From a virus (Duplodnaviria > Caudoviricetes), in IMG/VR virus record IMGVR_UViG_3300033076_000395, positions 1 through 30,453 of that record: a DNA stretch of 30,453 nt; one strand, 5' to 3'. Below, piece after piece: positions 7,594 to 29,842 of the stretch. Position 1 is the first letter of the stretch. Every line of letters begins with the position of its first letter. The notes under the pieces are model-generated. The model was given only the letters and a program-made list of their open reading frames with translations. It was not told the DNA's origin and did not search any database. A program made the translations under genes and the position numbers.

Positions 7594-7633
7594 ATTATCT
7601 CCTTATATATTCCATCAAAATATTTATCCGCTT

Positions 7634-7726: not shown

Positions 7727-7903
7727 TCTTGATGGAGGCTATTTTAAACTATTTTTTACTGACTTGTTGGGATGGGAGGGCGAAGCCCGACCTTAAGGAG
7801 CTTCGCTCCCTTGGAGAACTTTGTTCTCCCCGTGACCCCCTCACGGGTATAATATACATGAGGTTAGCGATTTGTCCAATGGACCTAAAAATAATTTAAA
7901 AAA
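7727..7903 (-). promoter_or_regulatory. Hairpin-array element A (candidate origin or promoter-leader)
   Basis: Perfect hairpins at 7778-7788, 7797-7809, 7813-7829 and 7829-7847. Boxes at 7727-7736, 7846-7862, 7871-7880 and 7887-7896 are shared in inverted form with element B. Confidence 0.7.
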
Positions 7904-7961
7904 GTTTTAGGATTGGTGGAAGATCTACTACTATCGGACTATATAGTATACGGAGGAAGAA

Positions 7962-8528
7962 ATGGTGGCTCATTTCAAAGAGGACTTTACATCGTGGATA
8001 GCGGATAAGAAAACCTGCTATGATCACATCTTAGAATTTATGACCTATTCAAATGTTGGTAAAATGTTCTCCAGCATTTTAGGTGTGGAAGCTAGAGAGC
8101 TAGCTGTTGATTGCTGGATATGGATATGGGAAGGCTCCTGTACTACTAGAGGATTAGTCAAGGAATGGTACGGAGATATCCTTATAGAGAACTGGAAGGT
8201 GGAAAGAGAAGCACGCATGAGTGTGAAGGTTGCTTCCACATACTTCCTTCGTATCCTTGGTACAAAGAATAAAAGATTTAAAAAGTTTCAGAAAGAAGTT
8301 AAGGAGGCTCTAATGCTAGAGGTTGAAATTAAGAGTACTGGTGAAGGTATAGAATTGAACCTATCAAAAGAAGATAAGGTTCTAATGTTATGGAATGCTG
8401 GAGAGATTGATACAGCTGAGGCTATGGAAAGATTATCTTTATCCTCCCGCCAATCTCTTTATAATCGCTTTCAATCCTTGATGGAAAGACTTAAGTTGGA
8501 GTTGCTATCAGGAAGTACTGCTGAATAA
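7962..8528 (+). CDS. Divergent ECF-like RNA polymerase sigma factor
   Basis: 188 aa. Region-2-like EARELAVDCWIWIW and STYFLRI; region-4-like LSKEDKVLMLW...TAEAMERLSLSSRQSLYNRFQSLMERLK. GGAGG RBS. Confidence 0.6.
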   Translation: MVAHFKEDFTSWIADKKTCYDHILEFMTYSNVGKMFSSILGVEARELAVDCWIWIWEGSCTTRGLVKEWYGDILIENWKVEREARMSVKVASTYFLRILGTKNKRFKKFQKEVKEALMLEVEIKSTGEGIELNLSKEDKVLMLWNAGEIDTAEAMERLSLSSRQSLYNRFQSLMERLKLELLSGSTAE

Positions 8529-8670
8529 TATCTAAAAGATCTTCTACCCATGCATCATCATGTACTGGGAATGGATCTGTAAGACCGTAAGTTAACATAA
8601 TGGAGGCTGCAGCGAATAGCTCGGCCTCCATTTTCTTTTTATCATTATCGGGTAAGAATGCTAAATGCAT
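8491..8670 (-). CDS. Small hypothetical protein, 59 aa (below the ORF-track cutoff)
   Basis: MHLAFLPDNDKKKMEAELFAAASIMLTYGLTDPFPVHDDAWVEDLLDIIQQYFLIATPT, preceded by TAGGAGG-TCTA-ATG. Confidence 0.55.
   Translation of the reverse strand: MHLAFLPDNDKKKMEAELFAAASIMLTYGLTDPFPVHDDAWVEDLLDIIQQYFLIATPT
8599..8640 (+). terminator. Intrinsic terminator after the sigma-like gene
   Basis: Stem AATGGAGGC/GCCTCCATT followed by TTCTTTTT. Confidence 0.55.
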
Positions 8671-8752
8671 TAGACCTCCTATAATATGTGATAAAATATC
8701 TCTTCTATTGACATAATCTATTACTATTAGATGTAATGTTATAGGAGATGTA

Positions 8753-9319
8753 ATGTCATATTTTAAAACTCAGTTACCAAGTTCAGTTCGTGTAGTTGAA
8801 TATACAGTTAGAGCACTGGAAAAATATTATAGTGTAAAAGCTATACGTTGTGAGGAAGAACCATCAAGAGAAAATCCTCATCCTGTTGATATGGTTCAGC
8901 ATACTGGCAGCGGAAGAATTATTAATTATGAAGTCAAACGCGAGGGAAGAAGTAGACAGACAGGTAATGTCTTCTTTGAAATGAATGGGTTATCTGCAGC
9001 TAAGGCGTGTGGTGCAGAAAGATTATTTATGTGGATTGATGGAGCTTTAACTTATATAGATGTAGACCTTGGAGACTTAATCACTTGGTTACAAACTCAA
9101 GACATCTATTATAAAGCTAATGCTGGAGATGCAAAGAAGCTGGGATATTCTAAGGCTAATCCTGGATGGGCAATTCCAATAAAAGTTTTATTCGAATGTA
9201 CACCAAAGATGGATAAGACTATAGGAGATAAGGACCATCCCTTTGTAAGATCATTTGGAAAGAACTTCTGGCGCGAAGGAGATGATGTTTGGGATGCGGT
9301 TGGTAGAATGATTAGATAA
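8753..9319 (+). CDS. PD-(D/E)XK restriction-endonuclease-like protein
   Basis: PVD...YEVKRE...TGNVFFE fits a D-(x)n-EVK nuclease core with the TGNxFxE extension common in phage members. AGGAG RBS; TTGACA at 8708. Confidence 0.65.
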   Translation: MSYFKTQLPSSVRVVEYTVRALEKYYSVKAIRCEEEPSRENPHPVDMVQHTGSGRIINYEVKREGRSRQTGNVFFEMNGLSAAKACGAERLFMWIDGALTYIDVDLGDLITWLQTQDIYYKANAGDAKKLGYSKANPGWAIPIKVLFECTPKMDKTIGDKDHPFVRSFGKNFWREGDDVWDAVGRMIR

Positions 9320-9359
9320 AAGAAAACCCCAGTAGGTGGCTCTACTGGGGCTTCTTTTT
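9318..9359. terminator. Bidirectional intrinsic terminator
   Basis: 9-bp stem CCCCAGTAG/CTACTGGGG flanked by an A-run and a T-run, between convergent genes. Confidence 0.85.
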
Positions 9360-9488
9360 ATGGAGAATTTAATTAACGAGAACGAGCTTCAAAAGATGGA
9401 CAAACTATTTAACTATTGCTGCTAATGTCAATTGTAGGCACCAACGAAATTGTTAGTGAAAGATCCTACCTCTATATATTACTCGCCT

Positions 9489-9896
9489 CTATCCATTTGG
9501 CCAAGTCTTTTTTATATGTTCATAAAGATTTTTTCCTGGACAAAGTGTTGCCGCAAGATCTCTATGACCTACTACCTTTGCTGAAGGATGTTTGGTTTTC
9601 CATTCTTGAATTTGAACTTCTAGAAATAGTAATTGTAGTTCCGTTGGTATATCTCTTTCAAAATTTCCAGTAAGACAAACAGCTAGAGTTCCTTTATTAT
9701 GTTCTTTGACGGAAGCTGGAACTTCATCTTCAGATCTTCCATCATGTATCTTTCCTTCAGGAGTTATTATTTTGTGGTAGCCAATCTTACTAAAGCCACG
9801 CTTCTTGTGCCACTCAGCTATTTCATCTGGAGTTGTGTCTGGATGAGAAGCTGAATGGTGTATTACAAGATGTGTGATTACCTTTGGCTGACGCAT
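9489..9896 (-). CDS. Endolysin, N-acetylmuramoyl-L-alanine amidase (Amidase_2 / T7-lysozyme-like)
   Basis: Zn-amidase motifs LVIHHSA, WHKKRGFSKIGYH and GHRDLAATLCPG. The likely start is the ATG at 9896 (TAATG overlap with the upstream gene), not 9965. Confidence 0.92.
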   Translation of the reverse strand: MRQPKVITHLVIHHSASHPDTTPDEIAEWHKKRGFSKIGYHKIITPEGKIHDGRSEDEVPASVKEHNKGTLAVCLTGNFERDIPTELQLLFLEVQIQEWKTKHPSAKVVGHRDLAATLCPGKNLYEHIKKTWPNG

Positions 9897-10099
9897 TATA
9901 GGACCTGAAGATGTTGAAGAAGATCTAGGACTATATACAGTGTCGATAGACCAACTGCTGCCCAAGTCTTTACGTCTTTCTTTTTTTCTTTTGGGGCTAG
10001 TTCAACTGCAGCCTGAGCAACTACTGGTGCTACATCTTTAACTACTTCTGCAACCTTGCTGCTATCAACCCTTGATACTTTCTTAGTATGTATTTGCAT
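9896..10099 (-). CDS. Small membrane protein in the lysis cassette
   Basis: 67 aa with one C-terminal hydrophobic helix after KEKKK. Coupled to both neighbours by 1-bp overlaps. Confidence 0.55.
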   Translation of the reverse strand: MQIHTKKVSRVDSSKVAEVVKDVAPVVAQAAVELAPKEKKKDVKTWAAVGLSTLYIVLDLLQHLQVL

Positions 10100-10398
10100 T
10101 ATCCTCTCTCCTTAATTATTTTGATATCAGTTTTAATATCTTCTATATCTTCTTCAACACGCTCTTGTCTTTTTGATAACTGAACGATTGTGCTTTCAAA
10201 AACTTCACGATCCTTTTTATGTTCTGAAAGAATAGCCTCAACATTCTTTTGTTGATTGCTTACATATTCTTTTAAAAGTGGAAAGGCTTGGACTGTAGTA
10301 AATTTATAAATTGCATAAAGAACAAGCATAAGAATAGCTAATGCTCCGAATGGACCAAGTGCAGCAGTGATTAAGGCTTCAATCATTTTAAGTTCCAT
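10099..10398 (-). CDS. Putative holin (N-terminal TM plus coiled coil)
   Basis: Hydrophobic GPFGALAILMLVLYAIY followed by a charged coiled coil, a BhlA/UviB-like layout. Lies upstream of the amidase. Confidence 0.6.
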   Translation of the reverse strand: MELKMIEALITAALGPFGALAILMLVLYAIYKFTTVQAFPLLKEYVSNQQKNVEAILSEHKKDREVFESTIVQLSKRQERVEEDIEDIKTDIKIIKERG

Positions 10399-10582
10399 TC
10401 TCTACCTGAGGATATTCTTCTTCTATAATTAGAGGGAAGGTATCTCCTTCTTCTACATTGTCCCACATTGATGGTGGTATAACCAAATAATAAGCAGAGC
10501 AACCTGTTGCTTCTGCTATAGCCCTTGCTTCTTCTGCTGTAGAGTTAGGAGCAAGTAATGTTTTAACTATAATTGTATTCAT
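10388..10582 (-). CDS. Small acidic hypothetical protein (possible fibre partner)
   Basis: 64 aa, AAGGAG RBS, directly after the glycine-rich fibre gene. Confidence 0.6.
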   Translation of the reverse strand: MNTIIVKTLLAPNSTAEEARAIAEATGCSAYYLVIPPSMWDNVEEGDTFPLIIEEEYPQVENGT

Positions 10583-10592
10583 ACCATCTCCT

Positions 10593-11546
10593 TTAGCTCA
10601 TTACTATTATGCATAATGAACCTTGATTTCCGTTTGTTCCATTTATATTTACACCTGTACCAACGTTGTAAGCACCAGTTCCACCAGTTCCACCAAGGAC
10701 CTGAATAGAGCCTAAGTTTCCAAGAGGTGTCTGAGTGATTACAGTTACCTTTCCTCCACCACCACCTCCGCCACCAGCACATTCACCAGTACCAACTCCA
10801 AGTGATCCAGGTCCACCATTGCCACCGTTTGAAGAGATACGTCCATTATTATTTATATATCTTGCTGCTAGCCATACTATACCTGCACCACCTCCACCAC
10901 CACCAGAGATGAATGTGCCAGAAGTATATGATGTAACGTTAATAGCTCCACCACCACCAGATGAAGAACCATTAAAAGTTCCACCAGACCAACGACCATC
11001 AAACCATCTACCATTCCATTTTTGATTTGGGGTTGGTTGAGCTGATGCACCACCAGCTCCACCTACGTTTCCTCTTAAAGAAACATCACCACCCTTACCA
11101 CCAGTAGGAGCTTGGCCAAGGTTATTAAGTGAAGTATTTGAATTGCCTGTTCCAACATTTCCGTTGCCCCAGTTTACAGCTGTTAATGCCCAGCCGTTTC
11201 CACCTTGAGTTCCTGCTCCACCAAGATAGTTTCTTGTGTTTAGGATTAAGCCACCAGCTTGATTGGTGGAACTATTACCATCATCATTAACTGATGCTCC
11301 AGTTCCAATTGTTAATGTTCCTCTTACATAGATACGAAATCCATTTGGTTTAAAAGTATCTCCAACATTTGCCAATGTTAGATTATTAAAATGCATTTCT
11401 CTACCAGCAGTATATGTTCCAATGATAGTTAGATCTCCATCAGAACCATCACCAAACTGACCAGCAAAAAAGTCTGCAGAAAGAGATGATCCACCACCAG
11501 ATACATCTGGTCCAAATACATCAACGCCACAACTTGCTCCTGCCAT
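10593..11546 (-). CDS. Glycine-rich tail fibre/virion appendage protein
   Basis: 317 aa with FGDGSDGDLTI and repeated GGxGG and GGGGGGAG polyglycine segments. Confidence 0.7.
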   Translation of the reverse strand: MAGASCGVDVFGPDVSGGGSSLSADFFAGQFGDGSDGDLTIIGTYTAGREMHFNNLTLANVGDTFKPNGFRIYVRGTLTIGTGASVNDDGNSSTNQAGGLILNTRNYLGGAGTQGGNGWALTAVNWGNGNVGTGNSNTSLNNLGQAPTGGKGGDVSLRGNVGGAGGASAQPTPNQKWNGRWFDGRWSGGTFNGSSSGGGGAINVTSYTSGTFISGGGGGGAGIVWLAARYINNNGRISSNGGNGGPGSLGVGTGECAGGGGGGGGKVTVITQTPLGNLGSIQVLGGTGGTGAYNVGTGVNINGTNGNQGSLCIIVMS

Positions 11547-11547
11547 A

Positions 11548-11769
11548 TTAGTATCCTCTCATCTCGAAGTCAGAGCCAGAAGCTATTATTTGGCAAGCAG
11601 TATTTAAATCTTCTGGAGTATTTATTGTATACATTCTTCCATAACAATCTATAAATCCAACTCCACCATCGGGCCAAGCTGCATGAATAGCATCTGCTGT
11701 AAGTAACCATGTATCTACATACCATACATTGCCTAATACATATGGTTCTGTTTGAACTATCTGTAACAT
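11548..11769 (-). CDS. Small hypothetical protein (possible fibre partner)
   Basis: 73 aa; GGAGG RBS and TAATG coupling to the upstream gene. Confidence 0.6.
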   Translation of the reverse strand: MLQIVQTEPYVLGNVWYVDTWLLTADAIHAAWPDGGVGFIDCYGRMYTINTPEDLNTACQIIASGSDFEMRGY

Positions 11770-12746
11770 TATACAACCTCCTGTATATAGATATTAAGAG
11801 CCTTTACCTTTACAGAAGTTGTTCCAGTTCCTGTTGAACGTGAGAATGTAAGGAATGCCCATACATCATTATTAGCTGTAGCTAAATATCCACCTGTGTT
11901 AGTATTTGCAGTTGCATCCCAGTTCTGCCAATAAGCAGCAGATGCAGACATAGCATCAGTAGTTCCGTTATAATAAACAAATCTCTGTGTACTTGTTGCC
12001 CAGAAGTTTCTTGAACTTCTAGCAGAATAAGAACATCCCCATTTTGTTGGACCGGGATTTGAAAAACTATTCCAAGGTGCAGTATTTAATGAGAACTGTC
12101 CAATAGTATTTCCAGTATTTCCACCAGCAGGAGTTGAACCTAACCAGTTAAATATATTGTAAGGATAGTTTGTAGCTGTTCCAGTTACTGCTTCTGCTCT
12201 ACATGCTGCTGATTGAAATCGAGTAGGATAAGTTGCAGAGTTATTAAAGTAAGCAGTTCCACCTTGAAGAACACCAGCATTAGCCCAACAATAAGTTCCT
12301 ACCTGTGATGTATAAACTGCACCAGCAACTGTAAACATTGGGTCATATTCTGCCTCAACAACTACCTGCCATTTTTCAAAGTTAACATCTGAAAGAACAT
12401 CTGATGATATTGTTCTAATATCAAATGCTAAAACTGGAGCATGAAGTGTTGACCAATACCATCTACCAAACTGTGAGGTTACGTTGTTTGCTACGTTTGC
12501 TACTAATCTTCCACCAGTAATCTGCATGGAACCACCAGTATTGTTAGCAAGATTTTTCCACTTACCAGTTACAGTTGGAACAGATGAACCAGCAGCAGTT
12601 GTAAAAGTAAAATCTCCATCATTAGAAAATGTCTGTGATGCTTGTGTAGAGAAATCAATGGAAGCAACAAGTTTCTTTTTTCCATCAGAAACTATAGTTG
12701 TTCCACCTCCACCATCACTTGTGCTGAATACATCTGCTATTGGCAT
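11769..12746 (-). CDS. Putative receptor-binding/appendage protein (beta-rich)
   Basis: 325 aa, rich in T/S/N/G and aromatic residues, with a short N-terminal peptide and a Gly linker. Confidence 0.55.
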   Translation of the reverse strand: MPIADVFSTSDGGGGTTIVSDGKKKLVASIDFSTQASQTFSNDGDFTFTTAAGSSVPTVTGKWKNLANNTGGSMQITGGRLVANVANNVTSQFGRWYWSTLHAPVLAFDIRTISSDVLSDVNFEKWQVVVEAEYDPMFTVAGAVYTSQVGTYCWANAGVLQGGTAYFNNSATYPTRFQSAACRAEAVTGTATNYPYNIFNWLGSTPAGGNTGNTIGQFSLNTAPWNSFSNPGPTKWGCSYSARSSRNFWATSTQRFVYYNGTTDAMSASAAYWQNWDATANTNTGGYLATANNDVWAFLTFSRSTGTGTTSVKVKALNIYIQEVV

Positions 12747-13180
12747 TAGTTCTTCTCTAGTGTTAAGTTAACATACTTAAGGTTTGCTGTACCTGCATCT
12801 GTCTTGACTGTTACATAAAGAGTTGGTGTCTCAAGCCAAGCATCAACATCTACTTTATAAACTACACCACCTCTGGTTGCAGTTGTATATCCAGTAGCAA
12901 TGGTTGCTTTTGTATCTGGAACAAGTATTTCATCGGCAGTTGCGTCTGGAGAAACACGTACTGTTAAAGCTGTGCATCCACCAGCAATAGAGTGAACATG
13001 GATGTAGATCGCAGAAACTTTAACACCAAACTTTGCAGCAGTTGGAACTGGAGTACCTGGAGTTCCGCTTGCTGGATTGCTAAGTATATTAATACCTATT
13101 GGTGCTATAAAGGTAGTTGATAGTGCGGTAGTTATTGTTCCTGTAGATACAGGCCAAACTTCTGGTGTAATTCTTGCCAT
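12746..13180 (-). CDS. Small beta-rich virion protein (hypothetical)
   Basis: 144 aa, T/V-rich, GAGGA RBS, first gene of the appendage cluster. Confidence 0.55.
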   Translation of the reverse strand: MARITPEVWPVSTGTITTALSTTFIAPIGINILSNPASGTPGTPVPTAAKFGVKVSAIYIHVHSIAGGCTALTVRVSPDATADEILVPDTKATIATGYTTATRGGVVYKVDVDAWLETPTLYVTVKTDAGTANLKYVNLTLEKN

Positions 13181-13201
13181 AATAAGTTCCTCTAATAATT
13201 G

Positions 13202-13339
13202 CTATTTCTTTTTCTTTCTTGACTTACCAGCTTTTGCTAAAGCTGCAGCTATAGATTGTTTCTGAGAATGACCTTTCTTCATCATCTCAGATATATTTTT
13301 TGAAATTGTTTTTCTTGAACTTCCCTTTTTAAGTGGCAT
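13202..13339 (-). CDS. Small highly basic phage protein, 45 aa (below the ORF-track cutoff)
   Basis: [45 protein letters not shown] with AAGGAG-ATAAT-ATG. Resembles the recurrent phage MPLKKG...ISxNI...QAxAxAL peptides. Confidence 0.85.
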
Positions 13340-13348
13340 ATTATCTCC

Positions 13349-16300
13349 TTATTCTTCTGACATTTTATATCTTTCAATTGGAGTAGGTGACTTGCCAGCT
13401 TTTGCTGCCTGCAATTCTCTACTCAACTGCTTAGCTAATTCTTCTTGAGCAGTTACCCATTCAGGAGAAGACATTGGTGTTTCCAATCCAGCAAGATAAA
13501 GAACCCAACGGCCTTCTTTATTTTTCTTTAATTCAGCATTCTTTGGATCTTTTCCATTAGCAATAGCTGTAGCTGCTGCCCAATCCTTTAATGTTCTTTC
13601 TGCACCAAAGGATGTAAGCAAGAAACTATCAGTTAAGAAAGCAATCTTTCCATCAGTAGAACCAAATGTCCACTGATATCCACCATAAGTAGGCTCTCCT
13701 TTTTTAACTATAACTGCATTACCATTCTTATCTTTGACTGGACGTAGATCATATTTGTTTTTCATATAATCAAATAAACCAGTCTCAGTAGCAGTTACAA
13801 TCATTGCTGATGGGAAATAACCATTTGGCGCACCAGAATATGGAGAAACTAATTCTGCAATTTGTTTTGCATATTCTATATGTGGTTGTTTGGTGGTCAT
13901 TTCATAGACTGCTGAAACTCCAGTAGCAAATAATCTTCCCTTGATACCAGCATCTATTACTGTATAGATACCACCACCAAGTCTAGAATAAGCTTCAAAC
14001 ATTGGATTTGATGGACCATAATAACCAACTTTATATCCATCATAAGTTACATCATCTGTCCATGCCCATAATCTTGTACCACCATATTTAGCAGTATAAG
14101 CATCATGTCTCTTTAGATACTGATCTTCTATTCCCTTTTGTACTATTGCCATCTTAGTCATTGTAGCTGCAGATTGTGGTCTTCCAAGTGCAAGTACAGC
14201 TTCCCAAGTTGATTGTCTCATGAAGGAATAAAATAGAACCCAAGATGAAATTAATTTTCTTTCCCATTCAGAAATCTGAGAATAATCTAGAAGTGTATTC
14301 TTTGCAAGAGTTGCTGCTTCAGCTTCAGTTGTACCTCTAATGAGAGCTTCTTTAAATACTGCTTCGCGGAATACATAGTCTGCTTGTGAACCAACTATAT
14401 TCCAGAAAGAAGAATTTCTTGTGAATGGACCATAGCCTCTACGAACCTGCTCTAAAAAGTTGGCAGAATAACCAGCTTCATTTACTTCAGCTGCTCTCTT
14501 TACATCTTGCAATAGGGCTGTACCAAAGTCAAAGTCATACTGAGACATCTTATAAACATTCGTTCTGAATATTCTACTGATCTCTCCATTTGTAAATATC
14601 TTTCCATTTGCTGATACAACATAGTCTGCTGGCTTTATAAAGTCAGGAACTTTATCTATAGCTTTTCTTCCAAGCGATGTTCCTTTAAACCAATCGGAAA
14701 GCTTTCCAGCATAAGGAAGTGCTATCGTTGTAGCTGCACCTATACCAGCACCAGCCAAGGCACCAGGAATGCCACCTACAACGGCTCCTGTTGTCGCTCC
14801 AGTGCTTGCACCAGCTAATGCCCTACCTACCAGTGGGACTTCCTTAGAAGCCTCTAGGATTGGCTTTACGGTGGCCTTTGGAATATTAAGTGCAACAGTC
14901 ATTACGTAGGTTGGATTTGTTACAGAAGCAATAATTGGAGCAGTAAAGTTATTAACACCAAGGAAGCGAGTATTCATAGACCAAATACCACCAAGCATAC
15001 CACCAATAGTATTTCTTCTGATGGTTCCTGCCATCCATCCTATGCGTGACTTCCAGAAATCAGCAGCATCCTTATTTGCTTTTGTTAAATCTTCAAGGCC
15101 AGCAGCAACGAAACGATTGTTCATTGTAACTTGATTTAAAAACTTATAGCTATCTGGATCTAAGAATAATCTCATTCCATTCAAGTTATCAATCGCTACA
15201 TTGATAGCCTCAAATCCACCAGCAGAAGATTTAAAATCAAATCCAAGGCCAATCATCTTTGCAGTTACATCATTGACAGAAAGCTGAAGAGCATTCTCAA
15301 TCATGCCTTGTCTAAATAATGTAGATGCATTCTCAATTATTCTTGGAGTATAAGCAGAACGTTTAAAGCGGAAGCCAGTTGTAGTTTTATCTACTTGACC
15401 TTTATCAATTATTTGTGCAATAAGACCTCTTCTTTCCAAAACTGCAGATCTTGAAGTAGATAGAGTATCTTCAACAACTAAATCAACTAAAGCCTTTCTA
15501 TTTCCAGTTGCTTCTTTTAGAATATCTGATGTAAATATTTTAACACCATCAGTACCAGCTCCAGATATCCAATCATTAATCTTTCCTAATAGAGCTTCAT
15601 CATATGCTAAAGATCCTTCAGGATCAATTGCTGTCCCAACTCTTCTTCTAACTAATTCTGATATCTCTTCAGTTGGAGCTTTTATTCTTCCCTCAATAAT
15701 TAACTGTGGAAGTCCAGCCCCTCTTAATCCTTTGCCTTCTTTTAGGTTTTGAATAAGTAATGAGTATTCATCAAACTCTTTTAATAAATCATCACCCATA
15801 TATCCAGCAGGATCTGCCATAATTCTTTCTCTAAGTCCCTTATCTAATTCGCCAATATCAGAAGTAGTTCTTTTAATAGCTTCAATTACTCTTCCATCAT
15901 CTGTGAATTTTGCAGGATCAGCTATGATTGCATCAGCTATCTTTTTATATTCTTCTCTGCCCAAACGCTTTGGTGCTTCTTGGACAGCCTTGCCCATCCA
16001 TTCACCAAAGTCAATGGCTGGATAATTTTGAGCTAATATCCTTTGTACTGATGAAACTGTACCATCAATCTTGAATACACCATCATAGTATTTTTGTAGC
16101 TCTTCTGCTATCTGTTCAGAATTAACCAAGCCCTTAGAAATAATAGTATTTGTAACTTTAAAGTAAACTTCTTCTGCTACTTTATCCCAAGCTTTACCAG
16201 TAAATGTTTTTCCAATTACTTCTGATACGGCCTGCATAACAAGCGGATGAATTAATCTATCATAATCTCCAAGACCTTTTGTATCTCTAGTTACAACTTC

Positions 16301-20221: not shown

Positions 20222-20248
20222 ATATTTATTCCTCTATATATGGCTTTT

Positions 20249-22048
20249 TTATTCTACGGCATCTCCATCCATTCCATATCCAGCAGAAGAAGGTGGAGAT
20301 GGTCTGTTTGTTAGATATTTCTGATAAGCTTCGCCAAGAACATTGTAAATTATTTTACCCTTAACATCCTTGGCTACATCAGCACCACCTAGAGTTGCAG
20401 TCATATCTGCACTTCCAGTTGTAGACTTTGATATCTCATCATAAAGATTATCAAACTTAAGTTCTCCTCTTTCATATCTACCTTTGATATCATTATAGAT
20501 TTCAGAACCAGCACCAGTTATTTCTTGTGGAGCGAATGTTCCACCAGCAGCAGCTATTCCTTCTCTTACTTTCTTTGTATAGTCCATTATCTCATCAGAT
20601 GCACGATAAGGAGCCTGTTCCATAACTGGTGCTCTTCTTCCTGCAGTTCCTTCTTTTGGACCAAATCTTCCTTCAGGACCTGGAGGTGTTGCATATTCTC
20701 TTGATGTACCAAGCTCTGGTGCAGTCATTGGAACACCCTGCTCAAATGCTCTGCGTGCTTTTGCTGTCTCACCTGAATAATATGGAGCAATCTGACCAAA
20801 GCCTTTCTGACTTCTATCTGGATAATAAAGTTCTGCACCTCTACGAAGTATATCATCAGCAGTTGGAGCTTCAATCTTTTCTGGTGGAGTATATGGACCA
20901 AGTGCTTCTTTACGTTTTGAAAGTTCACCTTCTCTTACATATGTCTGAAGAATTGGATCATCTACATTTGTAAGTGCATAGTTTTCTATTGCATATTTTG
21001 ATGGATCAATAAAGTTAAGTTTTGAATACATAACTTTCTTTGCTGCTTCAAACTCAGGTGTACCTGGTTCCTTACCAGATAATTCCTTAATCTTTTCATC
21101 AACTAAACTTTCAGCTCTCATTGCTTCTGGAGCATCTATCTTTCCATCATTTCTATATGCATCAATAGCTAATGATCTTAGTGCTATTTCAGTTTCAGAA
21201 GCTATCTTGTCAGATACAGTAATAGAACCAGCAGCACCAAGTTGGTCATCAATATACTTTAATGCCTTCTTCATTTCACCAATTGATGTTCCAGCCATAT
21301 TAACATATTCTTCTGTCTTGTCAATCTTCTTTGCATCAAGACGAGCCTGATCAATCTCTGCTGATGGAACCGCAAATCTTGTTTCTATATCAGTTTTAAT
21401 CTTATCTTGTTCGGCCTGAGTTAGTGGCATACCACCTTTTCCAGCACGAACCTGAGCAGATGTTTCATTATAAAGATGAATGGCTAGAGCCTGCTTCTGT
21501 CCTTCAGAAAGTCCATTGAATGCAACTTCTAGGGATGGATCGCGAAGAATAAAATTATCAATAGCAGCATCAGCAGTTCTTCCAGTTTGTACATTGAACT
21601 TACCAACCTGACCACCAATAGCTCTAGATACCTGATCTGTTGCAGAAACAGGAGCAACGAAAAGACCTTCTGCTTTTGTTACAAGATCAACTCTTTGTCC
21701 AGAAACTTTAGTTGTTTCCTGTGCAATAGTTTCTGCTAGCTTTGTACGCTCCTGAAGAAGAGCGGTACGCCAATCAGTTCCAGCTCCTTTCTTTGCTAGC
21801 TTTCCAATTTCTGCTGAAAATACTTCACGCTCTTTTCTTAGGGCGTTAAGTTCTTCTTCAACACCTTTGAATGCAGCTTCACGATCTTTTTGATAAGCAA
21901 CTTCTGACTGATACTTTTGCTTAAGTTCAGTCTCTGCCCATTGAAGTCTTTGCTTTAATATCTCTTCTTTCTTTTTAAGATATCTTGTTGAATAACTTTC
22001 GCCTGTTGAACTAGCTCCAGGCAGACCTGCTATAGCTCTAATTGCCAT
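20249..22048 (-). CDS. Internal virion (ejection) protein 2
   Basis: 599 aa with an N-terminal coiled coil; positional call. Confidence 0.55.
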   Translation of the reverse strand: MAIRAIAGLPGASSTGESYSTRYLKKKEEILKQRLQWAETELKQKYQSEVAYQKDREAAFKGVEEELNALRKEREVFSAEIGKLAKKGAGTDWRTALLQERTKLAETIAQETTKVSGQRVDLVTKAEGLFVAPVSATDQVSRAIGGQVGKFNVQTGRTADAAIDNFILRDPSLEVAFNGLSEGQKQALAIHLYNETSAQVRAGKGGMPLTQAEQDKIKTDIETRFAVPSAEIDQARLDAKKIDKTEEYVNMAGTSIGEMKKALKYIDDQLGAAGSITVSDKIASETEIALRSLAIDAYRNDGKIDAPEAMRAESLVDEKIKELSGKEPGTPEFEAAKKVMYSKLNFIDPSKYAIENYALTNVDDPILQTYVREGELSKRKEALGPYTPPEKIEAPTADDILRRGAELYYPDRSQKGFGQIAPYYSGETAKARRAFEQGVPMTAPELGTSREYATPPGPEGRFGPKEGTAGRRAPVMEQAPYRASDEIMDYTKKVREGIAAAGGTFAPQEITGAGSEIYNDIKGRYERGELKFDNLYDEISKSTTGSADMTATLGGADVAKDVKGKIIYNVLGEAYQKYLTNRPSPPSSAGYGMDGDAVE

Positions 22049-22800
22049 TATCTACCTCCGTAGCGTTGAACTCTGAAGAAATCATAATCTTGTCTTATCT
22101 CTGCTTCTTGCTGAGGAGTTAGAGAACCTGTCTGCAATCTTTGTAGAAGTGAATTTTCTAATTCTCCAAAGGCTTGTCTTTCAGCTTTCTGCAGTTTGTC
22201 TTGAGCAACTACCTTGGCAACATCACCAAATGCAGCTAATGACTGAAGGTTTGCTTCTCTTGCCATGTCAGCTCTCTTTTGTTCTTCGCCAAGAAGTTCA
22301 TAGATACGAGCTTGTTCAGCTTTTGCTTCTGCCATATTTGCAGCTTCAATTTTGTTTCTTGCTTCTTGTTCCTGAGCAGCAACTCTTTGTTCCTGTCCAA
22401 TACCCATCTTATAAAAAGATCCTGCTCCAACATCTGCACCTTGAAGTGCTTGCTGGAATTGTAATTGCTGTTCTCTACGAGCAGTACGCATTGGATCAAT
22501 CATCTCAGCTTCTAGCTGTGCTCTTTCTCTATCAGTTAAACCAAGTGCTCCAAGCTCTTGTCTACGCTGCAAGTCAGCAAGTTCTTTCATTTGAGCTTTC
22601 TGAAGGATATCTTCATTATAGGTTCCGTAGCCTATTAGACCTCCACCAAGCGCACCTATTCCTGCGCCTAGTCCTGTACCTACAACTGGAACTATCGAGC
22701 CTATAGAAGCTCCTAGGGCCGCTCCTGATGAAGCTCCCTGAAGGGCTGCGGCAGCTCTCTGTTGCTTCATAGCTTGTTCGTATGGATTGTTACTTGCCAT
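22048..22800 (-). CDS. Internal virion (ejection) protein 1
   Basis: Glycine zipper GAALGASIGSIVPVVGTGLGAGIGALGGGLIG followed by a Q/E/A coiled coil; a P22 gp7 / T7 gp14-like layout. Confidence 0.65.
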   Translation of the reverse strand: MASNNPYEQAMKQQRAAAALQGASSGAALGASIGSIVPVVGTGLGAGIGALGGGLIGYGTYNEDILQKAQMKELADLQRRQELGALGLTDRERAQLEAEMIDPMRTARREQQLQFQQALQGADVGAGSFYKMGIGQEQRVAAQEQEARNKIEAANMAEAKAEQARIYELLGEEQKRADMAREANLQSLAAFGDVAKVVAQDKLQKAERQAFGELENSLLQRLQTGSLTPQQEAEIRQDYDFFRVQRYGGR

Positions 22801-22831
22801 ATGTTATCCTCATTAATAGTCTTATTTTTTT

Positions 22832-23515
22832 TTAATTATTTCCGTTAGATCCGCCAGCGGTTAATTCATTACTATCATGCCAAGCTTCAAGAGTAAATCC
22901 CCAGTTAATTAAGAATATATCATTTCCATTTGTATATCCCTCAAGAGATATGTGATGCCATCCCTTGCTTAACTTTTTCATTTGGAAGCCTGTAAAGAAT
23001 TCTCTTTGACGAAGTGCTGGAGAAGTTGCATACCACTCTTCATGTGTAAATGTTTTTGTATCAAGATATGTTATACCATCAATTGCAACATTCAGAGTTC
23101 CTTCTCTTTCGTTTGCAGTTGTGGTTGATAATCCAAAGTTATACATAAGAGGACAAGCAAAGAATTGGAATAGGGCAGTACATTCACTTTCAACATAGAA
23201 TGATATAGATGTGCTTGGATAATATCTTCTAGTATTATTTCCATTTACTGGCTGAGTTGTAGCACCAGCAATCCAAGATAATTTTTCTTCTACAGTTGTA
23301 AATACCTGAGAACCACATACTCCAGAAACAAAGTTAAATGTATTTGGAAGTGGATTAAATGATCCTTTCATTATGTGATGTTTTTGAAAAGGTCCATCAA
23401 CATCTCCAATAAGAACGCCACCATTTATATAAGTTTGTAGTTTATCAAATGCATCCTGAAAACTATCAGCTAGAATTGGTGCGTCAGCTACAACTGGTGT
23501 AAAAGTAAATGACAT
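22832..23515 (-). CDS. Tail appendage protein, paralogue 3
   Basis: 227 aa; N-terminal ILADSFQDAFDKLQTYINGG helix and a beta-sandwich-like C-terminus. Confidence 0.55.
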   Translation of the reverse strand: MSFTFTPVVADAPILADSFQDAFDKLQTYINGGVLIGDVDGPFQKHHIMKGSFNPLPNTFNFVSGVCGSQVFTTVEEKLSWIAGATTQPVNGNNTRRYYPSTSISFYVESECTALFQFFACPLMYNFGLSTTTANEREGTLNVAIDGITYLDTKTFTHEEWYATSPALRQREFFTGFQMKKLSKGWHHISLEGYTNGNDIFLINWGFTLEAWHDSNELTAGGSNGNN

Positions 23516-24462
23516 TATCTATCTCCCTTTTGTAGAACTATTGCTCCTATATTCATTCTTTCCATTTTTAATTCTAATGGATAAAATGGAGTTAGATCTG
23601 CAGCGTTTTGTAAGAATGCCCTAGTGTCATAACCTGGAGCTGTATAGTGTTGAAGTGTCATAATTCCAGTAGTTGCAATACCAAGCTGACGAATAACTAA
23701 TGGTGTATTATCTTCATGCACATAGTTTAAACAACCATGCAATCTTCTCATTGGTTTTACTTCTCTACCAATAGTTACTTCTTCTGATGCTAGATCATAA
23801 ACTGTAATACCATCATCAAGTAATCTTTCATCTGGATTTGTAGATGCTGATGGAGGATCTGTTTGTGGTATAGACATTGGATCTACTATTCCATAATCCC
23901 ACCAAACAGCTCTGCCTGGAAATACTTTCATATTATCTGAAGATCTTGGAGCAGCTACATCCCAATAAACTGGAAAGAATATCATGCAGTTAGATTTATC
24001 GTTTGTTGCTATAGGCCAATTTGCAGCAATGTTATTTAATCTTACAGAATGTATTATTGCTGAGTAGTGAAAACGAAGTACGTCACCTTTATTAAGAACT
24101 AGATAAGGAGGAACATCCCAAATTAAACGTGATGCTCCACCGCCTTGTGACCAGTTTAAAAAGTAAGCTCCCCTTCCGTTTACAGTATTGTCTTCAATAG
24201 AACCACCAGCACCAGTTCCTATCATAAATGTATTGGTTGTTCCATCATCCCATTTATTATAAGCATATGCTGCAGCTTTCATAATAGGAGAAGTTGACTG
24301 AAGGTGTCTTATATCAATTCCTTCAGAACGAACATTATCTTTATTAATTGAAGTTGTAGCAGTAGCTATAGCAGAAAATTTTGCATTAACATCTGCTGCA
24401 AGTATTTCTGCTGGCTGTGCTGGAGGAATTGGCGCTACGTTATCTGTAATTATTTTTGACAT
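23515..24462 (-). CDS. Tail appendage protein, paralogue 2
   Basis: 315 aa; N-terminal ILAADVNAKFSAIATATTSINKDNV, a fibre-anchor-like helix. Confidence 0.55.
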   Translation of the reverse strand: MSKIITDNVAPIPPAQPAEILAADVNAKFSAIATATTSINKDNVRSEGIDIRHLQSTSPIMKAAAYAYNKWDDGTTNTFMIGTGAGGSIEDNTVNGRGAYFLNWSQGGGASRLIWDVPPYLVLNKGDVLRFHYSAIIHSVRLNNIAANWPIATNDKSNCMIFFPVYWDVAAPRSSDNMKVFPGRAVWWDYGIVDPMSIPQTDPPSASTNPDERLLDDGITVYDLASEEVTIGREVKPMRRLHGCLNYVHEDNTPLVIRQLGIATTGIMTLQHYTAPGYDTRAFLQNAADLTPFYPLELKMERMNIGAIVLQKGDR

Positions 24463-25091
24463 TATCTATACCTATTAAGAGCGAAAAGATTTCCTCCAGA
24501 ATAATAGAAGAACTGTTTGTCAGTTCCTGATGTGGAGTTTCTTGATGGAAGTTTAAATCCAATCTTTATTTCTGCAGGACCAGTTGCTATTGGAACTGCA
24601 CCAACTAAATGGATTGTTCCCCATCTTTGATAAAGAAAGTGTGTTTCTGCTATAACATTATTATTTAAAACGATTTGAAACTGAACCCAGTCACCAGATG
24701 TATTTCCACTGATAACATCTTTATCCATCCAATACCAGCAATTAAATTCAATATGAAGAGTTCCTTCAATTGCCTCTATCTTTAATGGATATACTTCATT
24801 ATATTCCCAGCTACTTACATAATCTTTATATACAAGACCATCTACAGTTGTAACTGGAATTACTTCATTATATAAAGTAACTCTGCTTTCTGGCATCTTT
24901 ACATAAGTTTGCCAATATTGATGAAAAGCATAATCTTCAAATTTACTTCCATCAAGAGAAGCATCAGGAATATTTTCTCTATCCATACCAGAGTTTAAAA
25001 TAGCAGTAGATGAATTATAGATTGTGTCAAATTCCTGACCATCTATAATATTCTTCTCTCTAATTTCTCCTTGCTTAGCTAATATAGGCAT
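24462..25091 (-). CDS. Tail appendage protein, paralogue 1
   Basis: Likely start is the ATG at 25091 (MPILAKQ), with AGGAG upstream. Contains IIDGQEFDTIYN...LNSGMDRENI. Confidence 0.55.
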   Translation of the reverse strand: MPILAKQGEIREKNIIDGQEFDTIYNSSTAILNSGMDRENIPDASLDGSKFEDYAFHQYWQTYVKMPESRVTLYNEVIPVTTVDGLVYKDYVSSWEYNEVYPLKIEAIEGTLHIEFNCWYWMDKDVISGNTSGDWVQFQIVLNNNVIAETHFLYQRWGTIHLVGAVPIATGPAEIKIGFKLPSRNSTSGTDKQFFYYSGGNLFALNRYR

Positions 25092-25092
25092 G

Positions 25093-27318
25093 TTAGTAGG
25101 CGCTCCTTGGTCTTGCTGCTTTTGTTTCTGTACCACTTGAATTAAATTCTAATGAGTAATCAATTATGATTATATCATTGGTTGTCTGTAATCCAACGGA
25201 GAACGTAGAAGCAGCCATGTTAGCAACTGGAAATTTAAGTTGAGTATACATTGGTATTTCCCATCTTGCTACAGTGTGATCATTATTGGTGGTTGGACCA
25301 AATACTAATTCTCCAGTTGTTGAATTATAAATATATTGCTCAAGATATTCTGGACGTTGACCTAATCCTGAATTTGATTGGGTGTAATTATAATCCCAAT
25401 CTTTATTATAGAATACATTATATAGATTTGAACCTTCAGTAAAGCAATTTATATAAACCTGCTTTACGTGTTTCTTTAATTGTCCAATTCCAAATACTTG
25501 ATTTGCAGAAATCCAAGTTGAACTAAGTGGACCCTTCTCTTCTATAGAATAATATCCAGGTGTCTGTAATTGTGGAGGATGAAAGGTTGTTCCGTGTCCA
25601 GCATTTCTTCCACGAGAAATAAAGAATAGTCCAGTTTCATCTGGTACTAACCCAGTATATCCAAATGGTGTACCTAATGACTGACCTACATTATGTCCAA
25701 ATATAAATTCACCTCTAGCATCTACAGTTAAACATCCTACGGGAAAGCCTTCTCTTAAAGACCAAGACTTCTTTTCCATATGAAATACTACGCCTAGGTT
25801 ATTTATATCTGATCCATCAGCAGCAAAGTAAAGATGGTATTCTCTCCACTTTTCTGAGTAAGCTCCGCAAGCTCTAGCAATCATTGACTTATTTAATCTC
25901 TTCATCGTATCAATAATTGGTTTGGAAATCTTTGTAACTTCCATTTTAGAACCACCATCAAAACCACCAGAGACTAAGAAGATGCCATCATTTGAAAGGA
26001 ATACAACGCCAACCTCTGGAATAAGAGTTATGGTATGTAGTGCTCTAGTTCCTATTCCTTGTACAAGTGGAGATAATGTAAATCCATTTGTAGCATCTCC
26101 TCTAATTAAATCAATTGCATTCTCACGGAAGACTAGTAAATTATTATAATAAGTAAATAATCCAGTTACATCACCGCCTTGACGAGATCCTACTGAGAAG
26201 AAATCGAGTGCTCTATATTGATCGACTTTGAGTGGTTGGCTGTAGTAAATTTTCTGGGGGTCTGTTTGACCACCATCAATAAATAAACAATTCTTAAAAG
26301 TTGCAGAAAAACGTGTGGCTGGAGCAGGGAATAAAATAGAAGCATCGTCATTTGGGGCTACTGCTCCAAGTCTTGTATCCTTTGTATAATCAACATAGTT
26401 AGTTTCAATATTGTTAATGATGGTATCAACATAATAATATATCTCTTCTAATGTTTCACCATCTTGAAGATTTTTTGTTCTCCATATTTTTCTAGCAATA
26501 CATCCTGCAGGACCAAGTGGAACATTCTCAAGATAAACTGCTTGGGCACGATCATCAAAGTTTGGATCTCCAGCATGATGAGTTATCCATCCAGCAGCAA
26601 TAGAAGGAGCTGAGAGTGGACTTTCAGATCCATCTTCCATCAAGAAAGATACCTTCCATCTATAAAGATTTTCTGCATCTTTTGTCTTTATTCCAAGGCC
26701 ATAAGATTTATCCATCTTAAATGTATGTGGTTCAATTGGCATAACAGTCTGATCTGCTATACCAGAAGATCCATCAACGTTAGGTGTCCAAGGAAGTGGA
26801 GGATTTGGTGCTTCCATAAATCCAAGACCTACTGTTTTTACACCATCAAACTTTATTGGTCTTCCATTTCCAGACAGAATGATAAGGTTCTTTCCAATTG
26901 GATTATAATGTGTATATACCTCATCTGCCGCAGGAACTGATCTTTGACTATCTATAGTTATTTTATTTAAAGTATTTCCTTTCCAATAATGCAATTTCAT
27001 ATTTGCATTTGCATCAGTAGGAAATATCTTAGTAGTTGCTCCAGCATAGTCCTGCTCAAAAAGAAGAAATGACTTTGCTCCTTGATGGGTATTCCAAAAA
27101 TAAGTTGAATTTACTGGACCTCCATTTTGAAATCCAGCCCAATCATTTCTAGATGTTATTGCAGGAACAATACTTTCATATCCAAGTCTATTATCCCAAC
27201 CCATTGACTTTGTATCTATAGTCCAGTTGGTAAGTTTATAACTTGAATTTTCTACAGGATCTATACTTTCATCAATACCAAGTATGCCCTTATATTGTGG
27301 CTTGTTATCAGTTTGCAT
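25093..27318 (-). CDS. Tail nozzle / DNA stabilization protein (P22 gp10 / T7 gp12-like)
   Basis: 741 aa, beta-propeller-like (KIYYSQP, GGDVTGL, LLVFRENAI, VVFLSNDGIF). Follows the adaptor gene. Confidence 0.75.
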   Translation of the reverse strand: MQTDNKPQYKGILGIDESIDPVENSSYKLTNWTIDTKSMGWDNRLGYESIVPAITSRNDWAGFQNGGPVNSTYFWNTHQGAKSFLLFEQDYAGATTKIFPTDANANMKLHYWKGNTLNKITIDSQRSVPAADEVYTHYNPIGKNLIILSGNGRPIKFDGVKTVGLGFMEAPNPPLPWTPNVDGSSGIADQTVMPIEPHTFKMDKSYGLGIKTKDAENLYRWKVSFLMEDGSESPLSAPSIAAGWITHHAGDPNFDDRAQAVYLENVPLGPAGCIARKIWRTKNLQDGETLEEIYYYVDTIINNIETNYVDYTKDTRLGAVAPNDDASILFPAPATRFSATFKNCLFIDGGQTDPQKIYYSQPLKVDQYRALDFFSVGSRQGGDVTGLFTYYNNLLVFRENAIDLIRGDATNGFTLSPLVQGIGTRALHTITLIPEVGVVFLSNDGIFLVSGGFDGGSKMEVTKISKPIIDTMKRLNKSMIARACGAYSEKWREYHLYFAADGSDINNLGVVFHMEKKSWSLREGFPVGCLTVDARGEFIFGHNVGQSLGTPFGYTGLVPDETGLFFISRGRNAGHGTTFHPPQLQTPGYYSIEEKGPLSSTWISANQVFGIGQLKKHVKQVYINCFTEGSNLYNVFYNKDWDYNYTQSNSGLGQRPEYLEQYIYNSTTGELVFGPTTNNDHTVARWEIPMYTQLKFPVANMAASTFSVGLQTTNDIIIIDYSLEFNSSGTETKAARPRSAY

Positions 27319-28811
27319 TAACCCACCTTAGTTAGCTTAGAAGCATAACGATAATCAAATAGGGATTTTCCAGGACCAAATGGTTTCTTAACATGAATTG
27401 CATTTGCTTCTGTAAGCCAACGGTTCTCAAGGTTTAGCAATTCTTTATCTGCTTTTTCTTTATAAACCTTTGCTTGATTTAAATTATTATGCTTTAAGAA
27501 TACTTCTTCACATGTTCTATATACAAGATATTTATGACCAGAGGTTGGTACGTCAGGACAATCCTGATCATCTACCAATCTTTGTGGACGATAAAGATAA
27601 CGAAGAGTTATGACATAATCAGTATCTTGTCTTGGATAAAGACGAATGCGTTGATAAACACCACCATGCTCTGGAAGTGGTTTTCCATTTGTAAGCATTT
27701 CTTTGTAAAGATAAGTTGTTCTGCTTGTTACTGAAGATCCAAATGGAACTTCTTCAGTTGAATAAAAGCGATCAGAGTTTGGAACGCGAACATAATATCT
27801 CTTAAGTAATCCATCATAGACATCAGATGTTTGCATACCTGTTATGCTAATTCCATCAAGAGCTGTAACATTTGGAACTACTTCATCTGAGATTGGAGAT
27901 GGTCCACTTTCCCATTCAACAAGAGTTCCCTGATCTCCAGATCCACCACCCTGTAAATAATTCTGAGCTTGTACGAAGGTATAGCATACTTGATATTTTC
28001 CAGCAAAAGGTGCTCTCAAGCCATCAAAAACTGGACCAGCATTTACTGCTGCTGATGGCTCAATAAGAGGAGGTTTAACATAATAATCTCCTTCAGGAAT
28101 ATAATCAGTTGGTCTTCCTCTTTCATCCATATTTACAGCCCATTGTTCATCAATGTATTTAGACATTGGATCAAATGGCCTTAAATCTGCTTGAGCATTT
28201 GTACCCACAGTTTCCCTCAAGCCAAGACCAAGAATGGCTACGCAGTCCTGTGGAAGCGTTATATAGCGATGCTTAAAGGTGCATACGATATCAGGATTAG
28301 AGTTTCCAATTCGTGGTGTACGCTCATAGATTGAAGCTAATCTTTGCTGATCTTTATCCATTCTCTGGAAGTAAACACGAGACTTTGAATTATTAGATCC
28401 AGTTGTAATATTAGTTACCCAATAATCTGCAGGAATATTCTGAAGAGGTTGATTAGTGATAATATCTGTACCAGAAGTAATAGATATGATACATCCAGCA
28501 GCTAACCAAAAAGGAACATCTGCAGCTGGACATTCTATATAAGCATAGTATCCACCAGTACCAGTTCCTATTGGTCCATTATAATCATTGTAGAGTTGTA
28601 CCTGAGAACCTACTAGATCATCTACAGGAAGAGCTACGTCAGTATGAGCATGAAGCTTTATCTCTTTCTGTGCCCACTTCCACTTACGATCAGAGAATAG
28701 GCTTAAGTAAATATCGTTTAGAATAGAACGAATTTGCTGACGATATTCTGGAACCTCTGGATTGTAATCGAGGATATTGCCAACCTCGTCAATTAGTTTT
28801 CCTAAATTCAT
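27318..28811 (-). CDS. Head-tail adaptor (P22 gp4 / T7 gp11-like) with insertions
   Basis: N-terminal helices ending in WKWA, then ITLPQDC, RIRLYPRQD and a C-terminal PDVP...HKYLVY helix pair. Confidence 0.65.
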   Translation of the reverse strand: MNLGKLIDEVGNILDYNPEVPEYRQQIRSILNDIYLSLFSDRKWKWAQKEIKLHAHTDVALPVDDLVGSQVQLYNDYNGPIGTGTGGYYAYIECPAADVPFWLAAGCIISITSGTDIITNQPLQNIPADYWVTNITTGSNNSKSRVYFQRMDKDQQRLASIYERTPRIGNSNPDIVCTFKHRYITLPQDCVAILGLGLRETVGTNAQADLRPFDPMSKYIDEQWAVNMDERGRPTDYIPEGDYYVKPPLIEPSAAVNAGPVFDGLRAPFAGKYQVCYTFVQAQNYLQGGGSGDQGTLVEWESGPSPISDEVVPNVTALDGISITGMQTSDVYDGLLKRYYVRVPNSDRFYSTEEVPFGSSVTSRTTYLYKEMLTNGKPLPEHGGVYQRIRLYPRQDTDYVITLRYLYRPQRLVDDQDCPDVPTSGHKYLVYRTCEEVFLKHNNLNQAKVYKEKADKELLNLENRWLTEANAIHVKKPFGPGKSLFDYRYASKLTKVG

Positions 28812-28851
28812 GCTTATAGTTTCCTCTATAGATAGTCGTTTATTTTTTTTT

Positions 28852-29010
28852 AATTATTTTTGGACGAATTGGACAAAATAGATTTCTCATGTATATTATA
28901 CCTGCAGAGCAGGGGTTGAGGGCATCGCCCTCCACGGAGCGTAGCTCCCAAGGTTCCTCTCTAGTTTAAGTTAAGGTAAGTTAAAGTAAAGTTAAAGATT
29001 TCCATCAAGA
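28852..29010 (+). promoter_or_regulatory. Hairpin-array element B (inverted relative of element A)
   Basis: Boxes at 28852-28861, 28868-28877, 28886-28902 and 29001-29010. Perfect hairpins at 28901-28913, 28918-28932 and 28936-28948. Confidence 0.7.
28965..28997 (+). repeat. Degenerate tandem repeat (T)TAA(A)G x6
   Basis: TTTAAG TTAAG GTAAG TTAAAG TAAAG TTAAAG. Confidence 0.6.
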
Positions 29011-29806: not shown

Positions 29807-29842
29807 AAAAGCCCCTCAACCATTTCTGGAAGAGGGGCTTTT
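29807..29842. terminator. Bidirectional intrinsic terminator
   Basis: AAAA-GCCCCTC...GAGGGGC-TTTT between convergent genes. Confidence 0.8.

Follow-up and report, generated by a model that had tools for sequence, protein, structure and literature searches.

How does a tailed phage begin DNA synthesis when it carries no recognised replication gene? For such phages the answer is rarely known, and here we analyse a short candidate, an element of about 150 bases that is present twice in a podovirus-like phage, the complete virus record IMGVR_UViG_3300033076_000395, whose entire 30,453 bases we refer to as the window. A first-pass annotation had proposed that the two copies, element A on the minus strand and element B on the plus strand, are single-stranded DNA signals that provide one origin per strand, with early promoters bearing structured leaders as a fallback. 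A replication signal is still plausible, since the structure looks selected at the DNA level, but the arrangement of one origin per strand does not hold. We suggest, with a probability of roughly one half, that each element would act as a host-run, transcription-primed replication origin and that the module has been duplicated. Three observations speak for a replication signal: no replication gene is recognised, the first stem of the element spans the inferred transcription start, and a hairpin is kept in relatives at about 65% protein identity.

The core shared by the two elements occurs at exactly two places in the window, on the minus strand at 7896-7846 and on the plus strand at 28852-28902. 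The cores are equal at 38 of 51 positions and, as the first-pass annotation had stated, consist of three identical boxes at fixed spacing (37 equal bases) separated by unrelated spacers (one of 14 bases equal); about 0.002 such pairs are expected by chance over all windows of 51 nucleotides (nt). Both cores contain a sigma-70-type promoter match with 10 of the 12 hexamer bases, a conserved 18-nt spacing and an upstream A/T tract, and they rank joint first among 20 such matches in the genome once upstream A+T content is added. Sigma-70-like sites numbered 12 and 5 in two scanned regions, compared with 7.1 and 4.3 in shuffles; since such matches are frequent by chance, the promoter match by itself is weak, and its conservation weighs more. 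In the relative G003, TGGACA-18-TATTAT is kept in both copies and an alternative 16-nt reading is lost, and the pattern TGG(A/T)CA-18-TA(T/C)T(A/T)T was found only at elements (two each in G000 and G003, one each in G001, G002 and G004, none in G005). A pyrimidine-purine step lies 6-8 nt past the -10 box in all six independent copies and is the sole basis of the inferred start site. The parts of the two elements are as follows.

7887-7907, minus strand: element A, T-rich tract resembling an UP element, upstream of the -35 box; this stretch is T-rich in all six elements
7849-7878, minus strand: element A, sigma-70-type promoter match TGGACA-18-TATTAT; start placed near 7842 from spacing only
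7829-7847, minus strand: element A, first stem of 7 base pairs (bp) with a loop of five G; begins 1 nt past the -10 box and straddles the inferred start
7813-7829, minus strand: element A, extra 7-bp stem with an AAA loop, in this copy only
7797-7809, minus strand: element A, GGAGC-GAA-GCTCC, the family's most conserved hairpin; the contig of strain X3 lists no change
7778-7788, minus strand: element A, GGGC-TTC-GCCC, with fixed stem and variable loop (AAA in the strain contigs of X3 and X5)
7763-7772, minus strand: element A, first box of TCC-WW-CAAG type, directly past the hairpins, overlooked by the first-pass annotation
7737-7762, minus strand: element A, A-rich tract whose sequence varies between strains
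7727-7736, minus strand: element A, second box, TCCATCAAGA
7610-7619, plus strand: the box in inverted orientation, immediately ahead of the ribosome-binding site of the nearest downstream gene
28845-28861, plus strand: element B, T-rich tract upstream of the -35 box
28870-28899, plus strand: element B, promoter match TGGACA-18-TATTAT; inferred start near 28906
28901-28913, plus strand: element B, first stem of 5 bp with an AGA loop; the inferred start is the first loop base
28918-28932, plus strand: element B, GAGGGC-ATC-GCCCTC
28936-28948, plus strand: element B, GGAGC-GTA-GCTCC
28962-28999, plus strand: element B, A+T-rich tract with short GTTAA-like repeats, at the region's lowest-GC 50-mer (24%)
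29000-29096, plus strand: element B, direct and inverted boxes, which can also pair as a single long stem before the HNH gene

As had been claimed, an array of hairpins follows each core at once, and the two arrays are the window's only GC-rich clusters of three or more hairpins. Four such hairpin starts fall within 80 nt, at least three were reached by 1 of 100 dinucleotide shuffles of the window, and the DNA folding z is -4.2 for A and -2.7 for B; the only Rfam match in the window was weak and lay elsewhere. All four independent copies of the hairpin type have their first stem starting 1-3 nt past the -10 box, each with a stem sequence of its own. This stem fits DNA: a transcript from the inferred start would miss most of the 5' arm, and, provided that this start is right, the stem looks selected to fold in the opened DNA strand and not in RNA. 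A second constant is a GAGC-loop-GC hairpin located 19-40 nt past the -10 box in all seven copies (six independent elements and the near-identical G004), with a GNA loop on the transcribed-sense strand in six of the seven, or five of the six independent ones. The 9-mer GAGCG(A/T)AGC is present twice in the window, both times inside the elements, and at 0.77 per 100 kilobases (kb) in 649 kb of unrelated loci. According to the available part of PMC13037366, GNA triloops alone form this kind of mini-hairpin and their RNA counterparts are much weaker, in agreement with the first-pass annotation.

Sequencing runs were examined as assembled contigs, of which run X1 is perhaps the window's own source and is not independent. 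For the X3 contig, where 31 of 32 differences are listed, 11 lie in element A, all in a loop, a linker or the A tract, so that boxes, stems and the GGAGC hairpin are untouched, while all nine differences at B are listed and likewise leave the hairpins intact. The stem of the GGGC hairpin is unchanged in the AAA-loop contigs of X3 and X5.

Two more distant relatives, G001 (30,218 bases, 92% complete) and G002 (29,355 bases, 89%), have the same gene order at about 65% protein identity and a single element of another form. It consists of a T tract, TGGTCA-18-TACTTT, a four-G-run motif and GTGAGC-GWA-GCGAAC, behind which come several boxes, another promoter match and a tract with 4-8% GC. The four-G-run motif is the only one in the genome and takes the place of the window's first stem. 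Over the 42 bases that span the G runs and the hairpin, G001 and G002 differ only at the middle loop base. The hairpin stem closes only via tandem G-A pairs, which only the transcribed-sense strand can form; such pairs are stable in DNA (PMC8163305, in the part available). We equate the G001/G002 promoter with that of the window because of a data-tuned pattern and its position only. In G003 the 11-mer AAGGCCACTGG (3431, plus) shares bases with the -35 box of copy A, but in G001 (26600, minus) and G002 (2044, minus) it is found some 160 nt ahead of the promoter match; it may mark the true homologous position. A second GAGCGTAGC lies in the promoter spacer of G003 copy A, on the template strand at 3457 (minus); the other cores have degenerate forms. 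A 14-base core pattern proved too loose for finding further copies: among 234 matches examined in the loci retrieved, six had TATTATA with at most two mismatches, and three of these were true elements (G003, G004), from a metagenome scan over 3 of 64 parts.

An element occupies the A position in all three records that cover it. Of the eight loci covering the gap before the adaptor gene, by comparison, B is inverted in one (G004), direct in one and absent from six, and B is likely a dispensable duplicate of A. Both elements of G003 are on the same strand (3440 and 11767), and its copy B lacks the HNH gene. Three of the six relatives without B (L016, L017 and L019) have at its place a single CCCGACAAG box beside a terminator, at most 150 nt before the adaptor gene. 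One contig of run X1 connects 28692 directly with 29807, the junction expected of a relative that lacks the B cassette; with only 26 letters on one side, we did not use it as evidence. A distant relative, L012, has at about 440-500 a 13-bp stem with a long loop before the first gene of the terminase operon, unlike either form of the element.

These counts contradict, as a rule for the family, the model of the first-pass annotation, in which the copies would be a pair of initiation signals, each specific to one strand; RSF1010 has such a pair in ssiA and ssiB. The inverted orientation in the window and in G004 suits such a pair, as do the mini-hairpins described for RSF1010 ssiA in the accessible text of PMC13037366; however, the same-strand copies of G003, the absence of B from six of eight loci and the single element of G001/G002 do not, nor does the distance of about 9 kb between the copies round the circle, nor the lack of a recognised primase or helicase gene. 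We regard this model as very improbable.

The earlier fallback is the main rival. It holds that the elements are strong early promoters for the host polymerase, in which structured leaders or promoter-proximal DNA structures tune transcription and the boxes are operators, with no role as origin. Such promoters would account well for cores that are the genome's top sigma-70 matches, for loops that vary, and for the direction of the copies, every one of which points into genes, that of G003 copy B into the tail operon behind a terminator. They would also suit the boxes of G001/G002, which flank the second promoter match (11 of 12) as operators do, and the leader of B, which folds as RNA with a z of -4.36 that none of 200 shuffles equalled. 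The leader of A, however, folds no better than shuffles (z -1.56, 18 of 200 as good), a transcript from the inferred start cannot form the first stem, and no terminator-like site was found after the hairpin row of A or B. Moreover, the hairpins are kept regardless of the downstream genes, and the replication start of a phage without replication genes would be left unexplained. We therefore consider a promoter without origin function possible, although rather doubtful.

The GAGC hairpin motif is shared with plasmids, where a conserved module next to ColE1-type and IncX1 origins contains it. We found GAGCGTAGCGA at 1332 in ColE1, and the 11-mer GAGCG-T-AGCGA is identical in G001 and ColE1 1332-1342 (11 of 11 bases). 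When six further plasmid stretches were picked from 30 listed hits among more than 5,000, GAGCG-N-AGCGA was present in all seven stretches fetched (ColE1 included), N being T in five, C in one and G in one; the set includes an IncX1 plasmid in which the motif is about 770 nt from the pir gene. The plasmid module with this motif is, we presume, the ssiA primosome site. The role of ssiA is described in the available parts of PMC3167613 and PMC5778457, which do not give its sequence. The 18-base pattern of G001/G002 was found in nine viral contigs, namely these two and seven others in four unrelated groups, where a scaling estimate predicts roughly one. The matches sit between long open reading frames (ORFs), with doubtful short ORFs overlapping five of the seven. 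Three related GC-rich phages (L277, L278 and L284) have a G002-type hairpin at about 3001-3018, just downstream of replication-initiator-like genes. GC-GNA-GC is also present in the F-G gap of phiX174 and at the left end of N4. Of the precedents named in the first-pass annotation N4 stands, but the G4 origin has a four-base-loop form, GCGAAAGC. With BLASTN, A gave chance matches only among plasmids, and so did B among annotated phages.

We searched 32 ORFs of the window against PHROGs and Pfam, and 14 of them also against NCBIfam, and no polymerase, primase, helicase, single-strand binding protein or initiator was matched. Recognised were a major head protein, a portal-type connector, a large terminase, an SU10-type adaptor, an amidase and an HNH endonuclease, with a weak sigma-region-4 match. 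Nor was a replication gene recognised in 18 further ORFs, 12 from G001/G002 and six others, which gave only HNH, endolysin and families of unknown function. A 152-amino-acid (aa) ORF resembled the DNA polymerase III epsilon family (NCBIfam) with an E-value of 0.012, below the cut-off, and was set aside as weak. DNA-metabolism genes recognised in the window are only a RecU/Hjc-like ORF and the HNH gene; together with a candidate regulator they are located as follows.

8753-9319, plus strand: 188-aa protein whose structure model (predicted local distance difference test, pLDDT, 84) resembles RecU/Hjc junction resolvases, with a best E-value of 1.8e-4 and a template modelling (TM) score of about 0.35-0.41
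29119-29801, plus strand: HNH endonuclease and 108-aa ORF, read from element B; the G001 homologues are downstream of the A-position element
6863-7240, minus strand: sigma-region-4-type helix-turn-helix protein, a candidate regulator downstream of A, with all scores below curated cut-offs

The sigma-region-4-type protein was found in every relative that covers its place. A search for look-alikes of the 108-aa ORF found none with a name; neither G002 nor the G003 fragment has this ORF, which therefore does not accompany the elements universally.

The lack of recognised replication genes is also what would favour signals read by the enzymes of a helper phage, either its replisome or an N4-type hairpin-reading RNA polymerase, with the present phage satellite-like for replication. 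N4 promoters do carry GC-GGA-GC and GC-GAA-GC, and the best annotated matches of the terminase are other phages, at 24-30% identity. Yet the N4 polymerase is described with GGA or GAA loops in the accessible part of PMC13037366, whereas B and G001 have GTA, and the core fits a host sigma-70 promoter. In addition, no virion RNA polymerase gene was recognised, a 2290-aa protein having no family match in any of three libraries, and the phage encodes its own full head, tail and lysis set. Dependence on a helper is thus improbable in our judgement.

Returning to the transcription-primed origin, we infer every functional step of its mechanism. Host RNA polymerase would start inside the first stem, and the displaced non-template strand would then fold, into hairpins in the window and a G-quadruplex in G001/G002, and so hold the RNA-DNA hybrid open. 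The end of the RNA would prime the leading strand. As no replisome is encoded, the host restart primosome is the natural loader, and the GAGC-GNA-GC hairpin on the displaced strand may be a primosome-assembly-like site for host restart proteins. The A+T tract would ease unwinding, and the boxes would bind a regulator. The ingredients are known from other systems, as the available parts of the sources describe for a promoter with an unwinding tract, an R-loop and PriA loading in T4 (PMC3016281), ColE1 (PMC3167613, PMC5778457) and mitochondria (PMC4412123).

Several results weigh against this mechanism. The stems in the window are plain Watson-Crick, and the two strands fold about equally (-21.7 and -21.5 kcal/mol; -14.0 and -14.2 kcal/mol), while the transcript itself folds well, which disfavours an RNA-DNA hybrid. 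The conserved GNA loop of the first-pass annotation is upheld in part: GAGC-GWA-GC is kept at about 65% protein identity, but in G003 copy B the transcribed-sense strand reads TTC, the loop being inverted, and the loop of the GGGC hairpin is free, with five sequences, TTC, ATC, TAC and AAC (four copies) and AAA (strain contigs). The motif shared with plasmids is short, and its identity with ssiA is our assumption. A weight matrix built from four window-type cores ranks the G001/G002 promoter outside the top four sites. Skew, proposed earlier as a check for an origin, gives no origin signal: at fourfold sites it follows the coding strand throughout without a switch, and over the whole window it tracks gene direction. 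No host was identified, a search of GTDB genomes with terminase and capsid profiles having given nothing beyond one weak partial match. Finally, a small unannotated ORF could be an initiator, with the boxes as its iterons.

This last point leads to the boxes. Counted with a loose pattern, TCC-NW-CAAG-like boxes number three to six per element; they stand in direct and inverted orientation, and their middle bases change in step within a genome. An iteron-type origin or a packaging-start site, with the boxes as binding sites for a small phage protein and the hairpins as accessories, could draw on this arrangement, on the 4-8% GC tract right behind the boxes of G001/G002, and on the position of A about 1 kb upstream of the terminase genes. 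But no initiator family is recognised, B is distant from the terminase genes, and the loose form of the box is widespread in the genome at about three per kb, so that we rate this the least probable of the explanations considered. The 10-mer and 8-mer that the first-pass annotation had seen in both elements are indeed there, but they are not specific to them, TCCATCAAGA occurring seven times and TAGTTTAA four times in the window; a strain contig moreover alters three of the eight bases of TAGTTTAA in A, and neither sequence marks the element by itself. The boxes were also considered as DnaA boxes and rejected by eye, as they show two or more mismatches to the DnaA-box consensus and have a variable core.

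Turning to known systems, the transcription-primed origin would resemble that of ColE1 in its upstream host promoter and in needing no initiator protein (none is recognised here, although several small ORFs have no annotation), and the GAGCG-T-AGCGA 11-mer of G001 and the location of the motif on the displaced strand in five of six independent copies may add to the likeness. In ColE1, where Pol I extends the RNA primer and the PriA primosome uses ssiA (n'-pas), RNA II is however a long primer RNA and ssiA lies hundreds of bases downstream, whereas here the hairpin is 19-40 nt from the -10 box. There is also no sequence likeness beyond the motif, no antisense RNA was seen, and nothing like RNA II or RNA I was matched by Rfam on the elements or BLASTN of A; the window stems are Watson-Crick, and the element belongs to a tailed phage and not to a plasmid. 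In a single-stranded promoter of the Frpo/sso type, the -35 and -10 boxes form a long stem with a complementary stretch close by. Such a stem is absent in A and B, for which the best complement within 400 nt matched 14 and 15 of 20 bases, respectively, with start-aligned 20-mers and without a shuffle control.

T4 oriF and oriG, as described in the available part of PMC3016281, are likewise modules of about 100 bp with a promoter followed by an A+T-rich tract, several per genome and with little sequence likeness; but T4 uses MotA-dependent promoters and its own replisome, whereas here no replisome is encoded and a GC-rich folded block stands between promoter and tract. The four-G-run motif of G001/G002, on the transcribed-sense strand after the promoter match, recalls the mitochondrial heavy-strand origin with its promoter, conserved sequence block (CSB) II G-quadruplex and R-loop (PMC4412123, in part). 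The window, by contrast, has hairpins and no G-quadruplex motif, and the polymerase would be a bacterial multi-subunit enzyme. The signals of the phiX174 F-G intergenic region, the G4 complementary-strand origin, RSF1010 ssiA and the N4 virion-polymerase promoters are all single-strand signals (PMC13037366, as far as available), and GC-GNA-GC is shared with phiX174 F-G and N4, but a double-stranded genome like this one needs opening beforehand. The G4 loop has four bases, with CTG just 3' of it, whereas CTG was found in none of six copies in the 20 nt after the GAGC hairpin, although the triplet of the host primase may differ. N4 needs its own polymerase and, on the template strand, a 5-bp stem closed by a GGA or GAA loop, in contrast to GTA in B and G001 and GNA on the non-template strand; RSF1010 needs RepB' and paired opposite-strand signals, which are not kept here, where no own primase or helicase is recognised. 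By the features tested, the element is not a member of the ColE1, T4, G4, N4 or RSF1010 systems, and it would work like those of ColE1 and T4.

As to the genome as a whole, the 30,087-bp circle of the first-pass annotation is not a clean one, for only 254 bases are identical in the 366-nt overlap of the window ends and the real repeat is just 173 nt at 93%; the gene order across the junction is backed by a near-identical contig. The gene that follows the major head protein is present as different alleles at the two window ends (1-366 and 30088-30453); strain contigs diverge there too, and the gene looks hypervariable. Because contigs with related proteins reach 29-33 kb (one reaches 39 kb), the genome size is likely about 30 kb. 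Terminator-like stems with T runs on both sides mark the ends of plus-strand islands, at 29815-29850 and 9323-9354.

Around element A, an inverted pair, TCTACTAC-N-ACTATATAGTATA, flanks the element at 7924-7950 (plus) and 7718-7692 (minus), each copy just before a ribosome-binding site. The pair is present in G003 and absent from G001/G002, the same as the 188-aa gene at 7962-8528, and it is possibly the site of that protein. This protein had appeared sigma-like by eye, but its model was poor (pLDDT 46.5) and no search supported the resemblance. TGGCGG is found in the loops of stems with compensatory changes round the control region (G001 26897 and 26271, G002 2340 and 1720, window 7661, all minus). 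The small ORFs at 7339-7593 and 7212-7472, which are read in different frames, have about 130 nt in common, an overlap that relatives preserve; by eye, the first of them starts like a ribbon-helix-helix protein.

A search of the literature, with thin coverage of subscription and older papers, found no description of these elements or of this phage group, and nothing relevant on the motif or on a phage origin of this type. We put forward only tentatively the more general idea of a family of 30-kb tailed phages that encode no replication protein and replicate from a compact promoter-primed origin. In it, the displaced strand would be held by either a hairpin row or a G-quadruplex, the two being interchangeable, a plasmid-type primosome hairpin would load the host restart machinery, and the module could be duplicated in either orientation. 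The natural variants swap hairpins for a G-quadruplex around a motif that is common to plasmid origins. If the reading is true, initiator-free, RNA-primed replication would extend from plasmids to tailed phages, and the element would be a minimal origin. If it is a promoter only, it would nonetheless be the chief element of early control in a phage group not described before, and the stem that spans its start site would call for an explanation.

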